From positions 612 to 64,611 of the forward strand of contig JBBTSV010000005.1 of the NCBI GenBank assembly GCA_038064595.1: 64,000 nucleotides of DNA, read 5' to 3'. Each line of letters starts with the position of its first letter. Within the stretch, counting starts at the first letter, position 1. This document shows positions 366 to 62,474 of the stretch, one piece after another. Below the pieces are notes generated by a model. That model saw only the letters and a list, made by a program, of their open reading frames with translations, ran no database searches and was not told the origin of the DNA. A program made the translations under genes and the position numbers. The DNA is from Patescibacteria group bacterium. GTDB lineage: Bacteria; Patescibacteriota; Minisyncoccia; Phycocordibacterales; Phycocordibacteraceae.

Positions 366-436
366 GGGCCTATAGTAAAGTGGTATTACGCGTCATTCGC
401 ATTGACGAGGCGGGAGTCCGATTCTCCCTAGGTCCA
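366..436 (+). tRNA. tRNA-Ala (anticodon CGC)
   Basis: Same acceptor stem with G3:U70 as previous; anticodon loop ttCGCat. Confidence 0.8.
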
Positions 437-481
437 CAAATACACAAAACCTGCCCTGCGGCAGGTTTTGTGTATTTGTGG
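434..481 (+). terminator. Long perfect hairpin (22-bp stem) following the tRNA cluster
   Basis: ccacaaatacacaaaacctgcc ctgc ggcaggttttgtgtatttgtgg. Confidence 0.55.
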
Positions 482-651
482 AAGCCGCAGTGATGTTCGG
501 CTAGCAAGCCGAACCACGAGGCGGGGTAGCGGAAATCTGTGAGCGACCTAAATTTTAACGACCAAAGGGAGTATAAAATTGGAAGTACTCTCTGTGGTGT
601 GGCGACGAACAGATTATCCGTGACCACAAAAGACATAAAGATTTTGATACT

Positions 652-8342: not shown

Positions 8343-8849
8343 ATGTACAGCCTCGTCATCCTCTTCGTCTTTCTCCAAGCGCTCGGCGCCTTCACTGGCG
8401 CCTTTGCGACCATCTGGGCAGAGCTCGCCTATATCCGCGCGATGCGCGACGGCAAGGTCGACCGCGCCGAGCGCACACACCTCGACGCTATAGCCACAGG
8501 GCTCCGCTTTGGTATGACCTTGATCCTTCTCGCCTCGCTCGGGCTCGTTATCCTCGCGTATGTGAGTGACCCCGGAGTGCAGCCCGGCTTCTCACAGAGC
8601 TACTGGACCCTGATGCTCCTCTCGCTCCTTATCGTCTGGGTCTCGTGGGCGCTCTCGCGTAAGCGAGTCTCCTTTGCCTACGGTTCAGCGATCGCCTTCT
8701 CGGCATGGTGGTTTCTCGCCTACGCGACGCTCGGGTGGCTCCCGCTCCTCTCCTTTGGCGCCGTGCTCGCCTCCTTCGTCGTCGTCACGGGGATCTTTTT
8801 TGTACTCCTCCAGCTCCTGCGCACTATTTCTCTCCGCTCCCGTAAGTAA
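8343..8849 (+). CDS. Hypothetical membrane protein (168 aa)
   Basis: 4-5 hydrophobic helices, host-like codon usage. Confidence 0.6.
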   Translation: MYSLVILFVFLQALGAFTGAFATIWAELAYIRAMRDGKVDRAERTHLDAIATGLRFGMTLILLASLGLVILAYVSDPGVQPGFSQSYWTLMLLSLLIVWVSWALSRKRVSFAYGSAIAFSAWWFLAYATLGWLPLLSFGAVLASFVVVTGIFFVLLQLLRTISLRSRK

Positions 8850-8851
8850 AA

Positions 8852-8892
8852 AATATTCTTATCACTAGCCGATCGTCAAAGATAAGAATATT
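8852..8892. repeat. AT-rich 12-bp-stem hairpin AATATTCTTATC...GATAAGAATATT; related copy at 31648-31689
   Basis: Perfect 12-bp inverted repeat; the 16-mer AAATATTCTTATCACT recurs at 31647. Confidence 0.6.
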
Positions 8893-8972
8893 GACAAACC
8901 ATTTGAATAGTTTATAACCTAGGGCAGTAGTACCCGCGATTTTCGCAGACCGTTCCTCAGGGTTATCTGGGG

Positions 8973-9377
8973 TTGGAGACTTTCATGAAGACAGCTATAG
9001 TGTTCGAAGCGGAAGAGATCGACAAGCTGAAGGTGCTGGTCGCGAAGCTTAGCAAGCTGGCGATGGAAGCTGCCACGGTCGCATCGGACATCAACGTGAT
9101 CCTCGGCGAGACTGGCGGGTCGGCGCACGACCTGAACCTGCTGCAGCCGATCGAGACCCTCGAGCTTACGATCCGTGCGCGGGATTGTCTGATGGCCGAG
9201 GGCGTCTATTACATCGGCGACCTGATCCAGCGCACCGAGACCGAGCTGCTGAAGATCCCCAATCTCGGCCGCAAGAGCCTCAACGAGATCAGGGAAGCGC
9301 TGGCCTCTCGCGGCCTCCAGTTTGGCACCCAGCTCGAGAACTGGCCGCCGCCGGGCTTGCAGGACCTGCGCAAGTAG
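8973..9377 (+). CDS. Stand-alone RNA polymerase alpha-subunit C-terminal domain (alpha-CTD) protein
   Basis: Residues ~55-134 [71 protein letters not shown] align closely to E. coli RpoA 249-325; CTG/CGC/GCC-rich codon usage unlike neighbours. Confidence 0.8.
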
Positions 9378-9583
9378 CGCCGTCAAGAACGGTAGAGGAG
9401 TCCCCGAGGGAGCCACGAGTGGCACCCGAGGGGATTTCGAATTTTAATGCTGGGGAAATGGCTTATTATATGGATTGTTTTGCCCCCGGGGCCGGATGCC
9501 TGGGCGAACACGTTGACTCCGGTCTTCGTGTTCGCCCCTCGATTCAGCTTGCGACACGAGCGTGTCGTCACCTGATAGAGGAG

Positions 9584-9620
9584 AAAACCCGCGCGGCGTA
9601 GCCGCGCGGGTTTTCTGTTT
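9584..9620 (+). terminator. Rho-independent terminator
   Basis: aaacccgcgcggc-gta-gccgcgcgggttttctgtttct. Confidence 0.6.
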
Positions 9621-9646
9621 CTCGCCGCATAGTGTAGATTGGTTAG

Positions 9647-10744
9647 ATGCTTAAGATCGGTATCGTGGGTCTGCCGAACGTCGGTAAGTCGACGCTTTTT
9701 AATGCGCTCACCAAGGCGAGTGTGCCGGCAGAGAATTATCCTTTCTGCACCATCGACCCCTCGGTCGGTGTCGTCGGCGTGCCAGACGCGCGGCTCGCCA
9801 AGCTCGAGGCCTTTTCTTCGAGCGCCAAGGTGATCCCGGCGGCGATAGAATTCGTCGATATCGCAGGGCTCGTGAAGGGGGCCTCCACCGGCGAAGGGCT
9901 CGGGAACCAGTTCCTAGCCAATATCCGCGAGACCGATGCGATCCTCGAGGTGGTGCGCTTCTTTGACGACACCAGCATCCTCCACGTCGAGAATGAGGTC
10001 GAGCCGTATAAAGATATCGAGATTATCAACCTCGAGCTCGTCCTTGCCGACGCCGAGCAAGTGCGTAAGCGCCGCGACAAAATCGCACGCGACGTTACCA
10101 TGGGCGACAAGGCCGCGGTGCTTGAAGACAGCGCGCTCACCCTCCTTGCTCAAGCCTTCAGTCTCGGTAAGCTCGCGCTCCAGGCAGGGCTCTCAGAGGA
10201 TCAGAAAAGGGCAGTGCAGTCGCTCAACCTCCTTACCCTGAAGCCGATTCTTTATGCGTTTAATAAAAAGAGCGGTGGGCACAACCTCGATGAGCTTAAG
10301 GATGGGCGCGCGGAGCGCGCCATCGAGCTCGTGGAGTCGCTTGGCGGCCGCTACATCTATCTCGACGCCGCGACCGAGCGCGAGCTTAACGACGTCGCCG
10401 ATGAAGACCGTGAAGGCTTTCGCCAAGAGCTCGGGGTGAGCGAGGACGGCCTCGCGGGGCTCATCACCGCGGCATACAAGACGCTCGGGCTCATCTCCTT
10501 TTTTACGACCGGCAAAGATGAGACCCGCGCGTGGACGGTGAAGGCGGGGAGCACGGCGCCCGCGGCGGGCGCCGCCATCCACAATGACTTTTTGAATAAA
10601 TTTATCCGCGCCGAGGTTATCGAGTGGAGCACACTCCTTGCCGCTGGCTCCTACGCCGCCGCCCGCGAGAAGGGCCTCGTGCGCACAGAAGGGAAGGAGT
10701 ACGTGGTGAAGGATGGGGATGTTATAGAGTTTTTGCACGGCTGA
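9647..10744 (+). CDS. ychF: Ribosome-binding ATPase YchF (Obg-family GTPase)
   Basis: MLKIGIVGLPNVGKSTLFNALT G1 motif, 365 aa with C-terminal TGS domain. Confidence 0.9.
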   Translation: MLKIGIVGLPNVGKSTLFNALTKASVPAENYPFCTIDPSVGVVGVPDARLAKLEAFSSSAKVIPAAIEFVDIAGLVKGASTGEGLGNQFLANIRETDAILEVVRFFDDTSILHVENEVEPYKDIEIINLELVLADAEQVRKRRDKIARDVTMGDKAAVLEDSALTLLAQAFSLGKLALQAGLSEDQKRAVQSLNLLTLKPILYAFNKKSGGHNLDELKDGRAERAIELVESLGGRYIYLDAATERELNDVADEDREGFRQELGVSEDGLAGLITAAYKTLGLISFFTTGKDETRAWTVKAGSTAPAAGAAIHNDFLNKFIRAEVIEWSTLLAAGSYAAAREKGLVRTEGKEYVVKDGDVIEFLHG

Positions 10745-11791: not shown

Positions 11792-14206
11792 ATGGCGTAC
11801 GACCACCGCGAGATCGAGAAGGCTGCCCAAGAGAAATGGGCAGCACGTGATCTGTATAAGGCCGATCTCACTGATGAGACGAAAGATCCGTATTACCTCT
11901 TGGTGGAGTTCCCGTATCCCTCCGGCGACCTGCATATCGGGCACTGGTACGCCTTTGCGGTGACCGACATCTACGCGCGCATGCTGCGGCTGCGCGGTAA
12001 AAACGTTCTCTTCCCAATAGGTTTCGACGCCTTTGGCCTCCCGGCTGAGAATGCGGCGATTAAAAATGGCGTTGACCCCAAGGAGTGGACCCTCGCCAAT
12101 ATCGAGCGGATGCGCGGACAGCTCCAGAGCATGGGTGCCTCCTTCGACTGGGGTAAAGAGGTGGTCACCTGCGACCCCGCCTACTATCAGTGGACGCAGT
12201 GGCTCTTCATAAAGCTCTTTGAGCACGGGCTCGCTGAGCACAAGGAGGCTGCGGTGAAGTGGTGCCCCAAAGACCAGACCGTGCTCGCCAACGAACAAGT
12301 TATCGACGGCCATTGCGAGCGCTGCGGCACCGAGGTAGTCGAGAAGCGGCTCACGCAATGGTTCTTGAAAATTACTGCATATGCGGATCGGCTGCTCACG
12401 GGGCTTGACCCGCTCCCGTGGCGCGAGGAGATAAAAGAGGCGCAGAGAGCGTGGATCGGTAAGAGCGAGGGCGCGCATCTCGAGTTCGCCCTTGCGGGAA
12501 GAGAAGAGAAGATACGAGTCTTCACGACTCGCCCTGACACCATCTTTGGCGCCACCTACGTCGTACTCGCGCCCGAGCACCCGCTTGTCGCCACACTTCT
12601 CCCGAGCCTCACTAACAAAAAAGAAGTCGAGGCGTATGTTACGGCGACCGCCAAGAAGAGCGAGCGCGAGCGTAGCGAGAATAAAGAGAAGACGGGTGTC
12701 GAGCTTAAAGGAGTGAAGGCAATCAATCCGGCGACCAAGGAGGAGATCCCCGTCTACATTGCCGACTACGTGCTTGCCTCCTACGGCACCGGCGCCGTGA
12801 TGGCCGTCCCTGCACACGACGAGCGCGACGGCGAGTTTGCCGCACGGATGGGACTGCCAGTTATTGAGGTGGTGGAGCGCGGAGAAAACCCATTGCCTTA
12901 CACGGGTACAGGGATACTGATGAACTCCGGTGACTTCACTCTGCGCAACAGTGAAGAGGCCAAGGCAGACATCATCGCCGCTGTGGGCGGCGAAGTAGCC
13001 ACCAACTACCGCATCCGTGATTGGCTCATCAGCCGTCAGCGCTACTGGGGCTGCCCGATCCCGATTGTCTACGATCCAGCAGGGAAGCCGCATGCCATTC
13101 CCTCTGAACACTTGCCCTGGATCCTGCCCACTGATGTCGACTTCACTCCCACTGGCAAGGCGCCCCTCGCGTCATCGAAGGAGCTTAAGGAGCGGGTCAC
13201 GAGAATATTTGGCGAGGGATGGACGCCCGAGTATGACACCTTCGACACCTTTATGGACTCGTCGTGGTATTTCCTTCGCTATCTCGACTCCAGCGATACG
13301 CATAAGTTTTCTGATGCTGCGCTCATGAAGAAGTGGATCCCGGTGAACCGCTACTCCGGCGGGAGCGAGCACACCACCATGCACCTCCTCTATGCGCGCT
13401 TCTTTATGAAGGCACTCTATGATCTCGCGCTCGTGCCGGTGGATGAACCTTTCACCGAGCGCTTCAATCGCGGGCTCATCATGGGCCCAGACGGGGCTAA
13501 GATGAGCAAATCGAAGGGGAATGTGGTCAACCCGGACGAGTTTGTGCAGAAGTATGGCGCTGACGCAGTACGGCTCTACCTCGCCTTTATCGGCCCTTAC
13601 AACGAGCCCGGGAGCTACCCATGGAATCTTGAAGGCGTTGCCTCGATGCGTAAGTTCCTCGAGCGTGTCGACCGCCTCATGTCTCGTTATCAGCAACTTG
13701 GAGGTGAAACCTCCAAGTCGAACTTGGAGGTTTCACCTCCAAGTTCTCAAAGCTTGATGGAGCAGGCGGTGGCTAAGGCAAGCGCGAAGGTGGCCGGGGA
13801 GGGAGATCGATTTAAGTTCAACACCGGAGCTGCGGCGCTGATGACGCTTCTCAATGAGCTTGAGGCTACAGAAGAAGTGCCCGCGAGCGTCCTCAAAGAT
13901 TTCTTGATTATGCTCGCGCCCTTTGCGCCGCACCTTGCTGAAAGCCTATGGGAAAAGCTCGGCGGAGAGGGTTCAGTCCACCAGCAGCCGTGGCCGGTAC
14001 GCGAGGTGGCGGCCGCCACCGAATACACGGTGGTCGTCCAGGTGTCCGGCAAGCGCCGTGGTTCGATTACACTCACCACAGGCGCCTCGGAGGAGGAGGC
14101 GGTACAGGCGGCACGCGCGCTCCCGCCGGTCGCTGCGGCGCTTGCCGGAGCCGAGCCGAGCCGAGTGGTCTACCTCCCCAACCGCCTTGTAAACTTGGTC
14201 GTCTAG
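11792..14206 (+). CDS. leuS: Leucyl-tRNA synthetase
   Basis: 804 aa; HIGH (GDLHIGHWY) and KMSKS (KMSKSKGN) motifs, editing domain. Confidence 0.95.
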   Translation: MAYDHREIEKAAQEKWAARDLYKADLTDETKDPYYLLVEFPYPSGDLHIGHWYAFAVTDIYARMLRLRGKNVLFPIGFDAFGLPAENAAIKNGVDPKEWTLANIERMRGQLQSMGASFDWGKEVVTCDPAYYQWTQWLFIKLFEHGLAEHKEAAVKWCPKDQTVLANEQVIDGHCERCGTEVVEKRLTQWFLKITAYADRLLTGLDPLPWREEIKEAQRAWIGKSEGAHLEFALAGREEKIRVFTTRPDTIFGATYVVLAPEHPLVATLLPSLTNKKEVEAYVTATAKKSERERSENKEKTGVELKGVKAINPATKEEIPVYIADYVLASYGTGAVMAVPAHDERDGEFAARMGLPVIEVVERGENPLPYTGTGILMNSGDFTLRNSEEAKADIIAAVGGEVATNYRIRDWLISRQRYWGCPIPIVYDPAGKPHAIPSEHLPWILPTDVDFTPTGKAPLASSKELKERVTRIFGEGWTPEYDTFDTFMDSSWYFLRYLDSSDTHKFSDAALMKKWIPVNRYSGGSEHTTMHLLYARFFMKALYDLALVPVDEPFTERFNRGLIMGPDGAKMSKSKGNVVNPDEFVQKYGADAVRLYLAFIGPYNEPGSYPWNLEGVASMRKFLERVDRLMSRYQQLGGETSKSNLEVSPPSSQSLMEQAVAKASAKVAGEGDRFKFNTGAAALMTLLNELEATEEVPASVLKDFLIMLAPFAPHLAESLWEKLGGEGSVHQQPWPVREVAAATEYTVVVQVSGKRRGSITLTTGASEEEAVQAARALPPVAAALAGAEPSRVVYLPNRLVNLVV
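13697..13743. repeat. 47-bp near-perfect palindrome (two inverted 21-bp self-complementary units cttggaggtgaaacctccaag) embedded in-frame in leuS
   Basis: Unit also present at 62450-62470; encodes LGGETSKSNLEVSPPSS in a variable LeuRS linker. Confidence 0.7.
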
Positions 14207-16167: not shown

Positions 16168-17118
16168 ATGGAATACCACATTACTTTGCCAAGCAAGCCC
16201 CGTATCGTGTCTGAAGAGGACATGCAGGGCGTTTATGAAATTGATTCACTTTATCCGGGATACGGTCATACGCTGGGCAACAGCTTGCGCCGTATCATCC
16301 TCTCTTCACTCCCGGGCGCAGCGATCACCCAAGTCAAGATCGAGGGTATTCCTCACGAGTTTGCAACTATTGATGGGATGCGCGAGACGGTGATGGAGCT
16401 CCTCCTCAATCTCAAGCGCGTTCACTTTATCCTTCACGGTGATGAGCCACAAACCATCTCCCTTATCACTAAGGGCACCGGCGAGATAACCGCAAAAGAC
16501 TTTAATCTCCCCAGCCAGGTCGAGATCAAGAATCCGGGTCAGCACATCTGCGATCTCGCCGGAAAGGCAACCCTCGAGCTTGAAGCAACGATCGAACGCG
16601 GCCTCGGCTACGTGCCGCGCGAAGTGTTGACCAAAGACAAAGTCGACATCGGCACCATCGCGCTTGACGCGACGTTCACACCGATCCGTCGCGTGAACTA
16701 CGAGGTCGATAACATGCGCGTGGGAGACCGCACCGACTTCAACCGTCTCCGTATCCTGATCGAGACCAACGGCACGATCGCTCCGCGCGAAGCACTTGAA
16801 AAGTCAATCGAGACGATGATTCACCAGCTCAAGGCCGTGATTGGTTTTCAAGAGAATGAGCCGGCGCATGAACGTACGGCATCAGCTTCGGCAAAGGAGA
16901 CCGACGGCGAGCTTGATGCGACGAAGGTAAAGATTGCTGATCTCGGTCTTCCTACTCGTGTCGTTTCGGCACTCGAGGAGGCAGGGATCAAGAGTGCAGC
17001 CGGTCTCGCCCGCAAGACCGCCTCGGCACTTAAGGAGCTTGACGGTATTGGCGACAAGGCGGTTGAGGAGATCTCGACCGCGCTTGCCGGCTGCGGCCTC
17101 ACGCTCAAAGGCGAGTAA
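16168..17118 (+). CDS. rpoA: DNA-directed RNA polymerase subunit alpha (divergent CTD)
   Basis: MEYHITLP start within ORF-track entry 16084; NTD dimerisation domain conserved; CTD much more divergent than the stand-alone copy at 8973. Confidence 0.9.
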   Translation: MEYHITLPSKPRIVSEEDMQGVYEIDSLYPGYGHTLGNSLRRIILSSLPGAAITQVKIEGIPHEFATIDGMRETVMELLLNLKRVHFILHGDEPQTISLITKGTGEITAKDFNLPSQVEIKNPGQHICDLAGKATLELEATIERGLGYVPREVLTKDKVDIGTIALDATFTPIRRVNYEVDNMRVGDRTDFNRLRILIETNGTIAPREALEKSIETMIHQLKAVIGFQENEPAHERTASASAKETDGELDATKVKIADLGLPTRVVSALEEAGIKSAAGLARKTASALKELDGIGDKAVEEISTALAGCGLTLKGE

Positions 17119-31620: not shown

Positions 31621-31647
31621 TCTCGCGGGCTCTCGTTTTTTTGTTGA

Positions 31648-31689
31648 AATATTCTTATCACTCGACGGTCGGCCATACATAAGGATATT
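31648..31689. repeat. Second copy of AT-rich hairpin AAATATTCTTATCACT...ATAAGGATATT (see 8852-8892)
   Basis: Shares 16-mer with 8851-8866; stem retained with a compensated loop. Confidence 0.55.
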
Positions 31690-31780
31690 TGATCGGTGAC
31701 CGACCATACACAATCATGACGCTATAGCGTGAAGATTAGGTATACCCGCCGCGGAAGTTTAACTTCCGCAGCACCCTTAT

Positions 31781-31843
31781 CCGCCAGCTTTTGAAATAAG
31801 CGCAGTAGCGGCGATTGACTTTTAGCATGGATAGCGCTATCCT
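31781..31843 (+). promoter_or_regulatory. Promoter-like module CCGCCAGCTTTTGAAATAAG-N14-TTGACT-N17-TATCCT
   Basis: Same 20-nt AT-rich element plus N14 plus TTGACW recurs at 32589-32628. Confidence 0.45.
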
Positions 31844-31847
31844 GAGG

Positions 31848-32588: not shown

Positions 32589-32651
32589 CCGCCACCTTTT
32601 GAAATAAACTTAGTTAGGCTGTTTGACAGTACATACGCAATGTGCTATAAA
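32589..32651 (+). promoter_or_regulatory. Promoter CCGCCACCTTTTGAAATAAA-N14-TTGACA-17-TATAAA
   Basis: Canonical -35/-10 with upstream AT-rich UP-like element; ~45-nt leader with AGGAGA SD before ATG 32702. Confidence 0.55.
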
Positions 32652-33354: not shown

Positions 33355-33394
33355 AGGCCCACGATTAGGCTCATAGCCAGATCGTGGGCCTTTT
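33355..33394 (+). terminator. Rho-independent terminator
   Basis: aaggcccacgat...atcgtgggcctttt. Confidence 0.55.
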
Positions 33395-33443
33395 CGTTTC
33401 CTATGACGAAGGGGTTGTGGGACGAAATGATATACTGGGGACC

Positions 33444-34265
33444 ATGACGGTCGCCGAGAGAAAAATCCTTTCTGTAGTCGCCCAAAAACCTTATTTCTTG
33501 AAGGACAACTTCGTTCTATATCACGGAGACTCAATAAACGTTCTCGCGCAGCTGCCCGAGAATTCGATCGACATGATCTTCGCCGATCCGCCGTACAATC
33601 TCTCCAATGGCGGCTTCACGGTGCACGCCGGACGCATGGTGAGCGTCAACAAAGGTGTCTGGGACATTAGCAAAGGATTTGAAGACGATTACGCCTTCCA
33701 CTATCGTTGGCTTGAGGCCTGCAAGCGCGTTTTGAAGCCTGAGGGCACACTCTGGGTGAGCGGCACCTATCACTCTATCTATCAGTGCGGTCATGCACTC
33801 CAATCCCTCGGCTACCATATCCTCAACGACATTTCATGGTTCAAGCCGAATGCCTCGCCAAACTTGAGCTGCCGATTCTTCACCGCGAGCCACGAGACAA
33901 TCGTCTGGGCGCGCAAAGATAAGAAGGCAAAACATACTTTCAATTATGAGCTAATGAAAGAAGGGAACTGGCCCGAGGATCAGTTGAAGAAGCCGGGACT
34001 CCAGATGCGCTCCGTATGGTCCATGGGCACCCCTCGCCCGGAGGAGAAGAAATACGGCAAGCATCCCACCCAGAAGCCGCTCGACCTGCTCAAGCGCATA
34101 GTGCTTTCGAGCACCAACAAAGGTAACGTCGTCCTCGACCCATTTACAGGCAGCTCCACGACGGGCATCGCCGCCGCTCTAAATGGGCGTAAATTCATCG
34201 GCATAGACATGGAAAAGAAGTACCTTGATCTTTCAATAAAAAGATTTAATGATCTTCGTGTATGA
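33444..34265 (+). CDS. Beta-class (DPPY then FxGxG) DNA N6-adenine/N4-cytosine methyltransferase
   Basis: IFADPPYNL motif IV upstream of DPFTGSSTTG motif I; ATG follows GATATACTGG; stop overlaps next gene. Confidence 0.85.
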   Translation: MTVAERKILSVVAQKPYFLKDNFVLYHGDSINVLAQLPENSIDMIFADPPYNLSNGGFTVHAGRMVSVNKGVWDISKGFEDDYAFHYRWLEACKRVLKPEGTLWVSGTYHSIYQCGHALQSLGYHILNDISWFKPNASPNLSCRFFTASHETIVWARKDKKAKHTFNYELMKEGNWPEDQLKKPGLQMRSVWSMGTPRPEEKKYGKHPTQKPLDLLKRIVLSSTNKGNVVLDPFTGSSTTGIAAALNGRKFIGIDMEKKYLDLSIKRFNDLRV

Positions 34266-34882
34266 AAATTGTTACGCGTACTATAGCAATAAGAAATTTG
34301 AAGAAATACATCGGGAAAGATTTGCGTCCACTCGCACTCAAGCATGGCATAACTACCTACGAGACCGGAAAGCAAAACAAAGGTTGGAAAGGTTTAGTTT
34401 TAGGACCATTGGCAGGTCTAACGAATAATAATTTGAAGGCCCCAAATGGCTTAGGTTTTGAGTTAAAGTCAGTTGCTTTCCATAAAGTAAAGGGCGAGCT
34501 CGTACCCAAGGAAACAATGGCGATCACAATGATCAACCCCAATGAGCTGCGGAAACACACATTCTATAAGAGCCACTGTTGGGAGAAACTGAAAGGCTTA
34601 GTTTTCTGTGCGGTTGAGTGGAGTGGCAAAAACTCTGGGGAAGCGAGGTTGCTCAAAGTGGCGAGCTTGGATTTTGCTGAAGATGACAAGCTTATAAAAG
34701 AGGTTAAGGCAGATTACGATCTCATTCGTAAAAAGCTAATTGCGGAAGGTTTCGACGCCTTGACGGGCAAGGACGGTAAATGGATACAAGCTCGAACCAA
34801 AGGATCCGGGCACGGTTCCACTAGCCGTGCATTCTATGCACGTACCTCATTCGTAAAGAAAATTTTCGAAACAGCAAGTTGA
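34262..34882 (+). CDS. MutH/Sau3AI-family type II restriction endonuclease (GATC-family fold)
   Basis: NKGWKG, GLGFELKSV and AFYARTSFVKKIF parallel E. coli MutH DKGWVG, ALGVELKTIP, RGFYLKKNFT. Confidence 0.7.
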   Translation: MKIVTRTIAIRNLKKYIGKDLRPLALKHGITTYETGKQNKGWKGLVLGPLAGLTNNNLKAPNGLGFELKSVAFHKVKGELVPKETMAITMINPNELRKHTFYKSHCWEKLKGLVFCAVEWSGKNSGEARLLKVASLDFAEDDKLIKEVKADYDLIRKKLIAEGFDALTGKDGKWIQARTKGSGHGSTSRAFYARTSFVKKIFETAS

Positions 34883-34889
34883 AGTCAAT

Positions 34890-35504
34890 ATGGAACTCCT
34901 TTACATAACTTTAGGATGGTTGTTTGGCTTACTCACGCCTCCCATTTCTTCTAGAATAGACAGAAAATATAAAGAAAAAGACTTTAGATTTGCAATATGT
35001 TCGGAGCTCAAAAATCTTGCTACTAGGATCGCGGGGCTTTCCTTTAAAGTCCATCTTCATTTGGGGAGTTTAGACAAACCATCATTAAGGTGGATTGGGG
35101 ATGTCTATAAAAAGTACAATGATGGCATGGTAACACCTGAAATGGAAAAAATATTCGGAGCGTCAGATGCAGATTTTAAAACGGTAATGGAGAAATATAA
35201 AGCATCTGAAAACAGATCGCTTGCTATCAAGACTTTCTCACTCCCAGTTATGGACTCTTTGTTGGGAGACATATGGGTTTTTGATTCACAATTTCAACGA
35301 GAAATCTTGGAATTGAGAAGTCAGGTGGATATTTTAAATCAAGAAATTGAAAATTGCATGCAATACTTTTTTCTAACTTTTGACCCTAGTACAATGAGTG
35401 CAAATGCGACTGTTTTAAATACGAATCTAAAAGAGAGTCACGGACTCATTGCAGACAGATGTAAAATTGTAGTGAGTAAAATTGACGTGATTATTGATAA
35501 ATAA
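34890..35504 (+). CDS. Hypothetical protein, very AT-rich gene, N-terminal TM helix
   Basis: 204-aa ORF; clearly AT-rich by eye in a higher-GC genome. Confidence 0.5.
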   Translation: MELLYITLGWLFGLLTPPISSRIDRKYKEKDFRFAICSELKNLATRIAGLSFKVHLHLGSLDKPSLRWIGDVYKKYNDGMVTPEMEKIFGASDADFKTVMEKYKASENRSLAIKTFSLPVMDSLLGDIWVFDSQFQREILELRSQVDILNQEIENCMQYFFLTFDPSTMSANATVLNTNLKESHGLIADRCKIVVSKIDVIIDK

Positions 35505-36377: not shown

Positions 36378-36402
36378 AGAAAAGCCCTGCGGGGCTTTTC
36401 TG
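36378..36402 (+). terminator. Rho-independent terminator upstream of trpS
   Basis: gaaaagccctgcggggcttttctgcttt. Confidence 0.55.
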
Positions 36403-62446: not shown

Positions 62447-62449
62447 TCA

Positions 62450-62470
62450 CTTGGAGGTGAAACCTCCAAG
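62450..62470. repeat. 21-bp self-complementary unit cttggaggtgaaacctccaag (same as the leuS insertion)
   Basis: Exact 21-mer match to 13697-13717. Confidence 0.65.
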
Positions 62471-62474
62471 TTGA

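Follow-up and report, generated by a model that had tools for sequence, protein, structure and literature searches.

A stand-alone RNA polymerase alpha-CTD gene derived from a Burkholderiales-type rpoA in a Patescibacteria genome

The RNA polymerase alpha subunit's C-terminal domain (alpha-CTD) is where UP elements and class I activators mainly dock. A stretch of 64,000 nucleotides (nt) from a Patescibacteria group bacterium (assembly GCA_038064595.1, contig JBBTSV010000005.1, positions 612 to 64,611; referred to below as the window) harbours, on the plus strand at 8985..9377, a small gene encoding this domain on its own. It is firmly established that the gene derives from a Burkholderiales-type rpoA by 5' truncation, that it was acquired horizontally and that it is specific to this lineage. 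Its foreign origin was concluded because it is missing in sister loci, because its nearest homologues belong to another phylum and because its composition is atypical. To our knowledge, transfer of fragments of core information-processing genes across phyla, followed by their retention as open genes, is rare. We give about an even chance to the proposal that the captured 3' part of rpoA is expressed, giving a free alpha-CTD that competes in trans.

The coding sequence starts with an ATG at 8985 and specifies 130 amino acids (aa); an alternative TTG start at 8973, sharing the stop at 9377, would yield 134 aa. A Shine-Dalgarno-like GGAG, read from the sequence, lies at 8975..8978 on the same strand, 6 nt 5' of the ATG. 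The alpha-CTD is encoded at 9129..9359 (aa 49-125, equivalent to E. coli alpha 250-326; E. coli numbering equals query numbering plus 201), as indicated by Pfam, PDB, structural modelling and DNA identity. Pfam RNA_pol_A_CTD (PF03118) matched aa 51-107 of the 130-aa protein with 76 bits (cut-off 23.8, E 1.9e-21), and a phmmer search of PDB aligned residues 45-127 without gaps to the E. coli alpha-CTD (3.3e-30). A free-standing alpha-CTD gene had been proposed at this position in an earlier note on the window, and the Pfam and PDB matches confirm it for the frame starting at either 8973 or 8985. The identity of about 70% to E. coli RpoA given there is slightly too high, as 63-65% was measured against the E. 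coli/Salmonella domain. An AlphaFold (AF2) model predicts a long helix at aa 9-41, a low-confidence linker at aa 34-47 and a CTD with a predicted local distance difference test score of 82-88 (aa 50-120). The model was built on 115 homologues from an rpoA alignment and is thereby biased towards the alpha-CTD fold; with the same bias, Foldseek superposed the modelled CTD on 3N97, 3N4M and 1LB2 with a TM score of 0.96 and a root-mean-square deviation of 0.8-0.9 Å, a fold with two helix-hairpin-helix motifs.

As far as can be read from its sequence, it is firmly established that the protein does not qualify as an alpha subunit. Neither PF01193 nor PF01000, representing the dimerisation and insert domains of the alpha N-terminal domain (NTD), was found in the 130-aa product, which consequently would be unable to dimerise into, or assemble with, RNA polymerase. 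The scores with the RpoA equivalogs are far below threshold (68.6 bits with TIGR02027, cut-off 227.8; 104 versus 302 with NF003513) and the matches are limited to the C-terminal part of each model. The gene is also in the wrong place for an rpoA, being located between orf168 and ychF, outside the rpsM-rpsK-rpsD-rpoA-rplQ operon. A PADLOC search with the protein returned only a weak match, to the helix-hairpin-helix region of PglW. The genome has its own full-length rpoA at 16168..17118 on the plus strand, outside the insertion described below and in an infA-rpsM-rpsK-rpsD-rpoA-rplQ context. This gene is complete, with NTD, insert domain and CTD (Pfam RNA_pol_L, RNA_pol_A_bac and RNA_pol_A_CTD). 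Its CTD scores 41.7 bits only, and BLASTP did not align it locally with the stand-alone CTD; the earlier observation that the genome's own CTD is far more diverged is thus borne out.

Among 5.8 billion clustered proteins the protein itself was the only close match. The next-best matches show ~59% identity across 85% of the query (70-74% when only the CTD is considered), carry PF01193 and PF03118, and include one named Burkholderiaceae; the best non-self matches are housekeeping rpoA genes, broken or partial, that lie in rpsD-rpoA-rplQ operons. Identity of the CTD to the Burkholderiales-type RpoA consensus is 73% over 77 residues, and positions 9128-9349 align ungapped to a Burkholderiales-type rpoA with 78% DNA identity over 222 nt. 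Outside 9128-9355 no DNA similarity to donor rpoA was detected on either flank, and no rplQ/L17 remnant follows the gene. Thirteen positions separate the beta consensus from E. coli; at 8 of these the protein is beta-type (Y276, I282, T287, R297, N301, E305, G325 and L326) and at none does it carry the E. coli residue. A taxonomic check of the top matches, which had been put forward along with the proposal of a proteobacterial, horizontal origin, gave Burkholderiales-type rpoA and not genes of the same lineage as top non-self matches; with the relatives lacking the gene, this upholds that origin. The Burkholderiales-type origin might hint at organisms living together with this uncultured lineage of the Candidate Phyla Radiation (CPR). 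The literature searched gave nothing relevant on horizontal transfer linking CPR bacteria with their hosts. Several database matches were considered as stand-alone proteins and rejected. The many short matches (110-130 aa, up to 132 aa) do not represent a stand-alone family: two that were looked at turned out to be frameshifted housekeeping rpoA genes in rpsM-rpsK-rpsD-rpoA-rplQ operons, others were housekeeping rpoA genes in normal operons truncated by contig ends, and the top tblastn matches in phage and plasmid collections were chromosomal rpoA genes mis-filed there.

The composition of the gene is atypical in some respects only. Its G+C content at third codon positions (GC3) is 0.85, compared to a host mean of 0.67, and exceeds that of every host gene in the window (maximum 0.80). 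CTG accounts for 12 of its 21 leucine codons (57%) versus 12% in host genes (P about 9e-7), where CTC makes up 54%, and this CTG share falls beyond the values of all host genes in the window. The overall synonymous-codon likelihood of the gene is not unusual for the host. Of the foreign codon usage suggested earlier, the excess of CTG therefore stands, but GCC does not, alanine being encoded mostly by GCG as in the host, and neither does CGC, which is also the preferred arginine codon of the host.

The gene resides in a lineage-specific insertion from 8850 to about 9625 on the plus strand, between the orf168 stop codon (TAA, 8847-8849) and the conserved ychF upstream region. In five relatives orf168 and ychF are only 20-45 bp apart: ~20 bp in L006, the nearest species representative (YchF 81% identical), and 23-45 bp in the metagenomic loci L092-L095. 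The window sequence from about 9628 (CATAGTGTAGATTGGTTAG-ATG, 9628-9646) aligns with their short spacer (TAGAAT/TAGGTT-ATG), and the intervening DNA was therefore taken to be inserted in this lineage. None of 43 CPR ychF loci and none of 8 metagenomic orf168 loci has an alpha-CTD gene. Both a survey of related genomes and a segment of roughly 750 bp had figured in the earlier note; the survey agrees with an insert specific to this lineage, and the segment measures about 776-797 bp (8850 to about 9625/9646), roughly 0.78 kb, bounded by a hairpin at 8852-8892 and a terminator-like hairpin at 9582-9616. The 0.78-kb insert contains no integrase, transposase, terminal repeats or phage genes, and no integron attC site or transposon ends were recognised by eye. 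As to a target-site duplication, only a weak, imperfect 14-nt repeat was seen, whose two copies (8824-8837 and 9615-9628) share 86% identity and whose meaning is uncertain. More distant relatives carry other genes in the slot upstream of ychF, which makes this position a variable one. In L007 (5198-5776), L008 (5218-5799) and L009 (4253-4840) an orf77-ychF slot harbours a ~192-aa flavodoxin-like/NAD(P)H-dehydrogenase-like gene and orf168 is absent; in L009 two further open reading frames (ORFs) are present in this slot. A TAGATT/TAGAAT/TAGGTT/TAGGGT box ~7-9 nt 5' of the ychF ATG recurs in the window (9628-9646), L006 (5980-6000), L092 (1345-1388) and L093 (2641-2666), which suggests that ychF has a putative -10 element and a leader that is very short or missing altogether.

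The identical 130-aa protein was called on nine contigs, all with the same gene order (ATP synthase, three small ORFs, alpha-CTD, ychF, DUF5671, leuS). Five of these records were fetched, and the DNA of all five matches the window with 100% identity: the metagenome-assembled genome (MAG) GCA_964356635.1 and the Logan assemblies SRR32696708, SRR32696710, SRR32696712 and ERR3858120. Both junctions of the insertion are base-for-base alike in these five separately assembled records, which represent at least two accession series.

At its left end the insertion starts with a palindromic host-type repeat (8850..8893), whose arms AATATTCTTATC (8852-8863) and GATAAGAATATT (8881-8892), 12 bp each and 100% complementary, enclose a 17-nt loop. 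The palindrome recurs at 31646-31690 with 81% identity, loop included, which identifies it as a host repeat, in line with the host-like left hairpin described earlier. The ~45-bp repeat has the form AAATATTCTTATC-N17/19-GATAAGAATATT, and both copies in the window are located just 3' of a plus-strand gene; it may be either a REP-like (repetitive extragenic palindromic) element or a host protein-binding site. A plus-strand promoter-like site close to consensus, TTGACA-16 nt-TATAAC (8891..8918), overlaps the right palindrome arm with its -35 hexamer; it was read from the sequence and its function is putative. Downstream of the gene follows a structured untranslated 3' region (9378..9581, plus strand) with hairpins at, for example, 9397-9438, 9502-9537 and 9544-9575. 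RNA folding of 9378-9646 gave -130.7 kcal/mol (z = -6.5 versus shuffled sequences). For this region of ~200 nt no Rfam family at threshold and no homologue was found, and an Rfam search of 8700-9750 returned sub-threshold terminator-like matches only. A 42-aa ORF within the region (9447-9575) has no matches. The unit is closed by an intrinsic-terminator-like hairpin at 9582..9616 on the plus strand, a perfect 16-bp stem (AGAAAACCCGCGCGGC-GTA-GCCGCGCGGGTTTTCT) followed by GTTTCT. It shares the style of A-tract, GC-stem and T-tract with host terminators at 36378 (36378-36401), 51234, 62411 and 28760. The foreign piece is thus embedded in apparently host-style signals, as what looks like a self-contained unit just upstream of ychF.

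Since its capture the gene has evolved fast. Comparison of the CTD with the closest rpoA by the Nei-Gojobori method gave 0.20 non-synonymous (dN) and 0.56 synonymous (dS) substitutions per site, versus 0.057 and 0.80 between two genuine rpoA genes. When divergence was split over three taxa, dN was about 0.18 and dS about 0.26 on the branch of the stand-alone gene. The resulting dN/dS ratio (omega) of about 0.7, compared to about 0.07 on the rpoA branches, shows a fast-evolving copy that appears to have been released from polymerase constraint; non-synonymous evolution of the CTD is ~10-fold faster than that of rpoA. The CTD differs from the consensus at 21 of its 77 positions, 13 of which are at least 99% conserved, and many of the replacements are conservative. 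The adjoining helix region, 89% conserved among rpoA genes, has retained only 39% identity to the consensus versus 73% for the CTD. The N-terminal 48 codons (8985..9128, plus strand), predicted to form the long helix (aa 9-41) and the disordered linker (aa 34-47), are an orphan sequence. Among 1.84 billion representatives the only homologue of these 48 residues was the protein itself. Comparison with rpoA NTD ends gave a marginal score of 9.3 bits (shuffle 95th percentile 6.6, maximum 12); the collinear similarity corresponds to the last alpha-NTD helix (K-[IV]-L-V-x-x-L), and several NCBIfam rpoA models align residues 15-22 to alpha positions 212-218. No frameshifted homology to rpoA was seen, as no other frame of the N-terminal region gave a match.

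The contact surfaces of the domain have been changed to different extents. The 265 determinant for DNA and UP-element binding, consisting of R265, N268, C269, G296, K298 and S299 in E. coli numbering, is retained at five of six positions (R265, C269, G296, K298, S299), with N268D and a neighbouring A267R replacement. The 261 patch contacts sigma-70 (sigma region 4) and the 287 patch contacts CAP-type activators. In the 261 patch E261 is kept, with D258E and D259T changed, and in the 287 patch E288, L289, L290, G315 and L318 are kept and R317Q is changed; K271M and R255Q are further changes compared to E. coli. Judged by these residues, the CTD scaffold is intact and its contact surfaces are shifted. 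The N268D and A267R replacements and the altered 261 and 287 patches suggest that specificity may have moved away from that of the donor polymerase.

The following course of events is considered most likely. A Patescibacteria (Paceibacteria-like CPR) lineage acquired the 3' part of a Burkholderiales-type rpoA and would have kept it as a small, insulated unit of transcription, placed precisely between orf168 and ychF. Transcription would start from the TTGACA-16-TATAAC site and stop at the 9582-9616 hairpin, and in the product a flexible linker would join an amphipathic helix to a canonical alpha-CTD. Such a protein would act in trans as a free alpha-CTD. The retained helix-hairpin-helix surface (R265, C269, G296, K298, S299) could occupy A/T-rich, UP-like minor-groove DNA, or alternatively the protein could bind proteins that normally dock on alpha-CTD. 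By either route its role would be that of a competitor or decoy, not that of a polymerase subunit. Dimerisation might be provided by the amphipathic helix at the N-terminus, as far as can be told by inspection. If functional, the protein would give a minimal CPR genome a simple means of regulation, in the form of a natural competitor acting in trans.

Several observations weigh against a trans-acting competitor. The alpha-CTD of the host is so different that BLASTP does not align it with the stand-alone CTD; activators of the host would hardly recognise a CTD of Burkholderiales type, and a decoy role in this cell is therefore not obvious. No precedent of a characterised free alpha-CTD regulator was found in the literature searched. 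Asn268 is invariant in 115 of 115 aligned rpoA fragments and is Asp in the stand-alone protein, a replacement that may weaken DNA binding. The -10 hexamer of the promoter-like site ends in C in place of the conserved T, which is why a consensus scan did not list the site. An omega of ~0.7 on about 60 synonymous sites is indistinguishable from neutrality, and all recovered copies are identical, precluding a dN/dS analysis within the lineage.

It had also been suggested that the UP-like motif TTTTGAAATAA in promoters elsewhere in the window is linked to the alpha-CTD protein. The motifs are real: four matches occur in the window versus 0.5 expected by chance, and two exact copies, at 31789 and 32597, are each located 16 nt upstream of a TTGAC -35-like hexamer. 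The tie to alpha-CTD is unsupported, as these motifs are part of two paralogous promoter regions whose similarity extends beyond the A/T tract, and the link is considered speculative. The two promoter-like regions (31782-31845 and 32590-32650) have TCCGCCAnCTTTTGAAATAA-N16-TTGAC(T/A)-N17-TAT in common. In both, the A/T motif is found approximately where an UP element or activator site would be expected.

A serious rival to the trans-acting competitor is that the gene represents a not yet decayed relic of foreign DNA. In this scenario a proteobacterial fragment, for example from a neighbour or host, was inserted by illegitimate recombination beside a host repeat and is drifting, the open frame, the Shine-Dalgarno sequence and the promoter-like site being fortuitous. 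This is possible, though we rate it clearly below the competitor. It agrees with the gene being known from a single strain-level lineage only, with the near-neutral omega, the unrecognisable N-terminal 48 residues, the loss of an invariant DNA-contact residue by N268D and the changes at 13 positions of at least 99% conservation, as well as with the variability of the slot upstream of ychF among relatives. The state of the reading frame argues against it. Despite about 0.2 substitutions per site relative to rpoA, the 130-codon frame has no stop and the 77 CTD codons no indel. In simulations of neutral divergence at 0.2 per site the frame stayed open in 12-14% of trials, and with indels at 5-20% of the substitution rate, a ratio that was assumed and not measured, the CTD was gap-free in at most 10% of cases; with this assumed ratio the joint neutral probability of an intact frame and an ungapped CTD is ~0.01 or less. 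Furthermore, the conservative nature of many replacements, the confidently predicted fold, the much better conservation of the CTD than of the adjoining segment and the complete host-style promoter, Shine-Dalgarno and terminator unit insulating ychF speak against simple decay. Even as a mere relic, the gene would show that a CPR bacterium took up foreign housekeeping DNA and integrated it.

CPR bacteria generally are episymbionts, and a role in mimicry of a partner organism may be considered. We regard it as improbable that an episymbiotic CPR bacterium captured the alpha-CTD of a Burkholderiales-type host or neighbour and domesticated it as a mimic. Free and possibly dimeric, such a mimic would act in the partner or in the bacterium's own cell, where it would titrate transcription activators, UP-like DNA, or phage or toxin factors that target alpha-CTD; if true, this would be the first natural 'polymerase-tail decoy'. 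Distinctly improbable, too, is a host-mimicry effector proper, by which a CPR cell living on a Burkholderiales-type host captured the alpha-CTD of that host and either delivers it or employs it at the interface, so that host activators, UP elements or factors targeting alpha-CTD are titrated. The Burkholderiales-like donor, the dS of 0.56, which lies within the range between two such rpoA genes (0.80), the core interaction scaffold kept while surface patches changed, and the episymbiotic way of life would fit such an effector. Inspection of the sequence revealed no signal peptide or recognisable secretion signal, however, and no secretion or effector genes are adjacent, the neighbours being ATP synthase, small membrane proteins and ychF. 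The 261 and 287 determinants and N268, which have moved from the donor state, also argue against faithful mimicry.

A phage-derived origin had been raised as well, in which the gene would be phage or mobile-element cargo belonging to a group of phage-borne stand-alone alpha-CTD proteins that redirect transcription. Stand-alone alpha-CTD ORFs (132-184 aa) do occur on IMG/VR viral contigs and in Bacillus phage Goe8, but these phage proteins are only 45-51% identical over the core, versus 73% for Burkholderiales rpoA. In addition, the protein has no PHROG match, the insert lacks any mobile-element or other phage gene and the flanking signals are host-style, leaving this origin very unlikely. Least probable of all is an assembly chimera or contamination, a proteobacterial read set joined to a CPR contig: the foreign composition and the proteobacterial best match would allow for it, but identical DNA with exact junctions in the MAG and four separately assembled runs excludes it, the fragment is flanked by host-style signals and, with the closest sampled proteobacterial rpoA at ~73% (aa) and 78% (nt) identity, it is not a contaminating housekeeping gene.

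Some other features of the window were noted. The hairpin ACTTGGAGGTGAAACCTCCAAGT, present as a tandem pair at 13695-13746 and as a single copy at 62449-62471, represents another short palindromic repeat family of the genome. A 206-nt repeat (window 428-631 and L001 287-490, 88% identical) lies beside tRNA-Ala genes where the window starts, and again ~1 kb farther upstream on that contig. Two adjacent ORFs at 34262-35504 have a GC3 of 0.33-0.46 versus the host mean of 0.67 and may constitute another foreign segment; they adjoin a DNA methyltransferase-like gene (33384-34265), recognised by its motifs only.

Comparison with known systems places the stand-alone gene closest to the CTD of the Burkholderiales-type housekeeping RpoA, with which it shares the amino acid and DNA identity and the eight beta-specific residues described above. 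Unlike the stand-alone protein, that RpoA has a whole NTD for dimerisation and beta/beta' assembly, and its gene is part of an rpsD-rpoA-rplQ operon. The E. coli alpha-CTD (PDB 1LB2, 3K4G, 3N97 and 1COO) has the same fold at 63-65% identity, but the protein studied here is untethered from polymerase. In Francisella (alpha1/alpha2, PDB 6WMP) the genome likewise contains a second alpha-derived gene, and both subunits match the stand-alone protein (9.5e-21 and 1.4e-18); these paralogues differ in being full-length and in both being assembled into RNA polymerase. Stand-alone alpha-CTDs of phages and plasmids, such as those of the IMG/VR contigs L086-L088, that of Bacillus phage vB_BmeM-Goe8, annotated as 'RNA polymerase subunit alpha', and the 95-aa hypothetical protein family PRK07758 of NCBIfam, are similarly small and encoded apart from rpoA, with one alpha-CTD-like helix-hairpin-helix domain and a short extension. 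They differ in their core identity (37-51%) and unrelated extensions, and the match to PRK07758 reaches only 26 bits (cut-off 115). No functional study of such small alpha-CTD-only proteins was found in the literature searched. The stand-alone gene of the window is a recent derivative of a cellular rpoA, outside these phage and plasmid lineages. Small proteins consisting of an alpha-CTD only are thus already known, and the present gene is an independently derived addition to this loosely defined group, notable because it arose from a housekeeping gene of another phylum and because it resides in a CPR genome.

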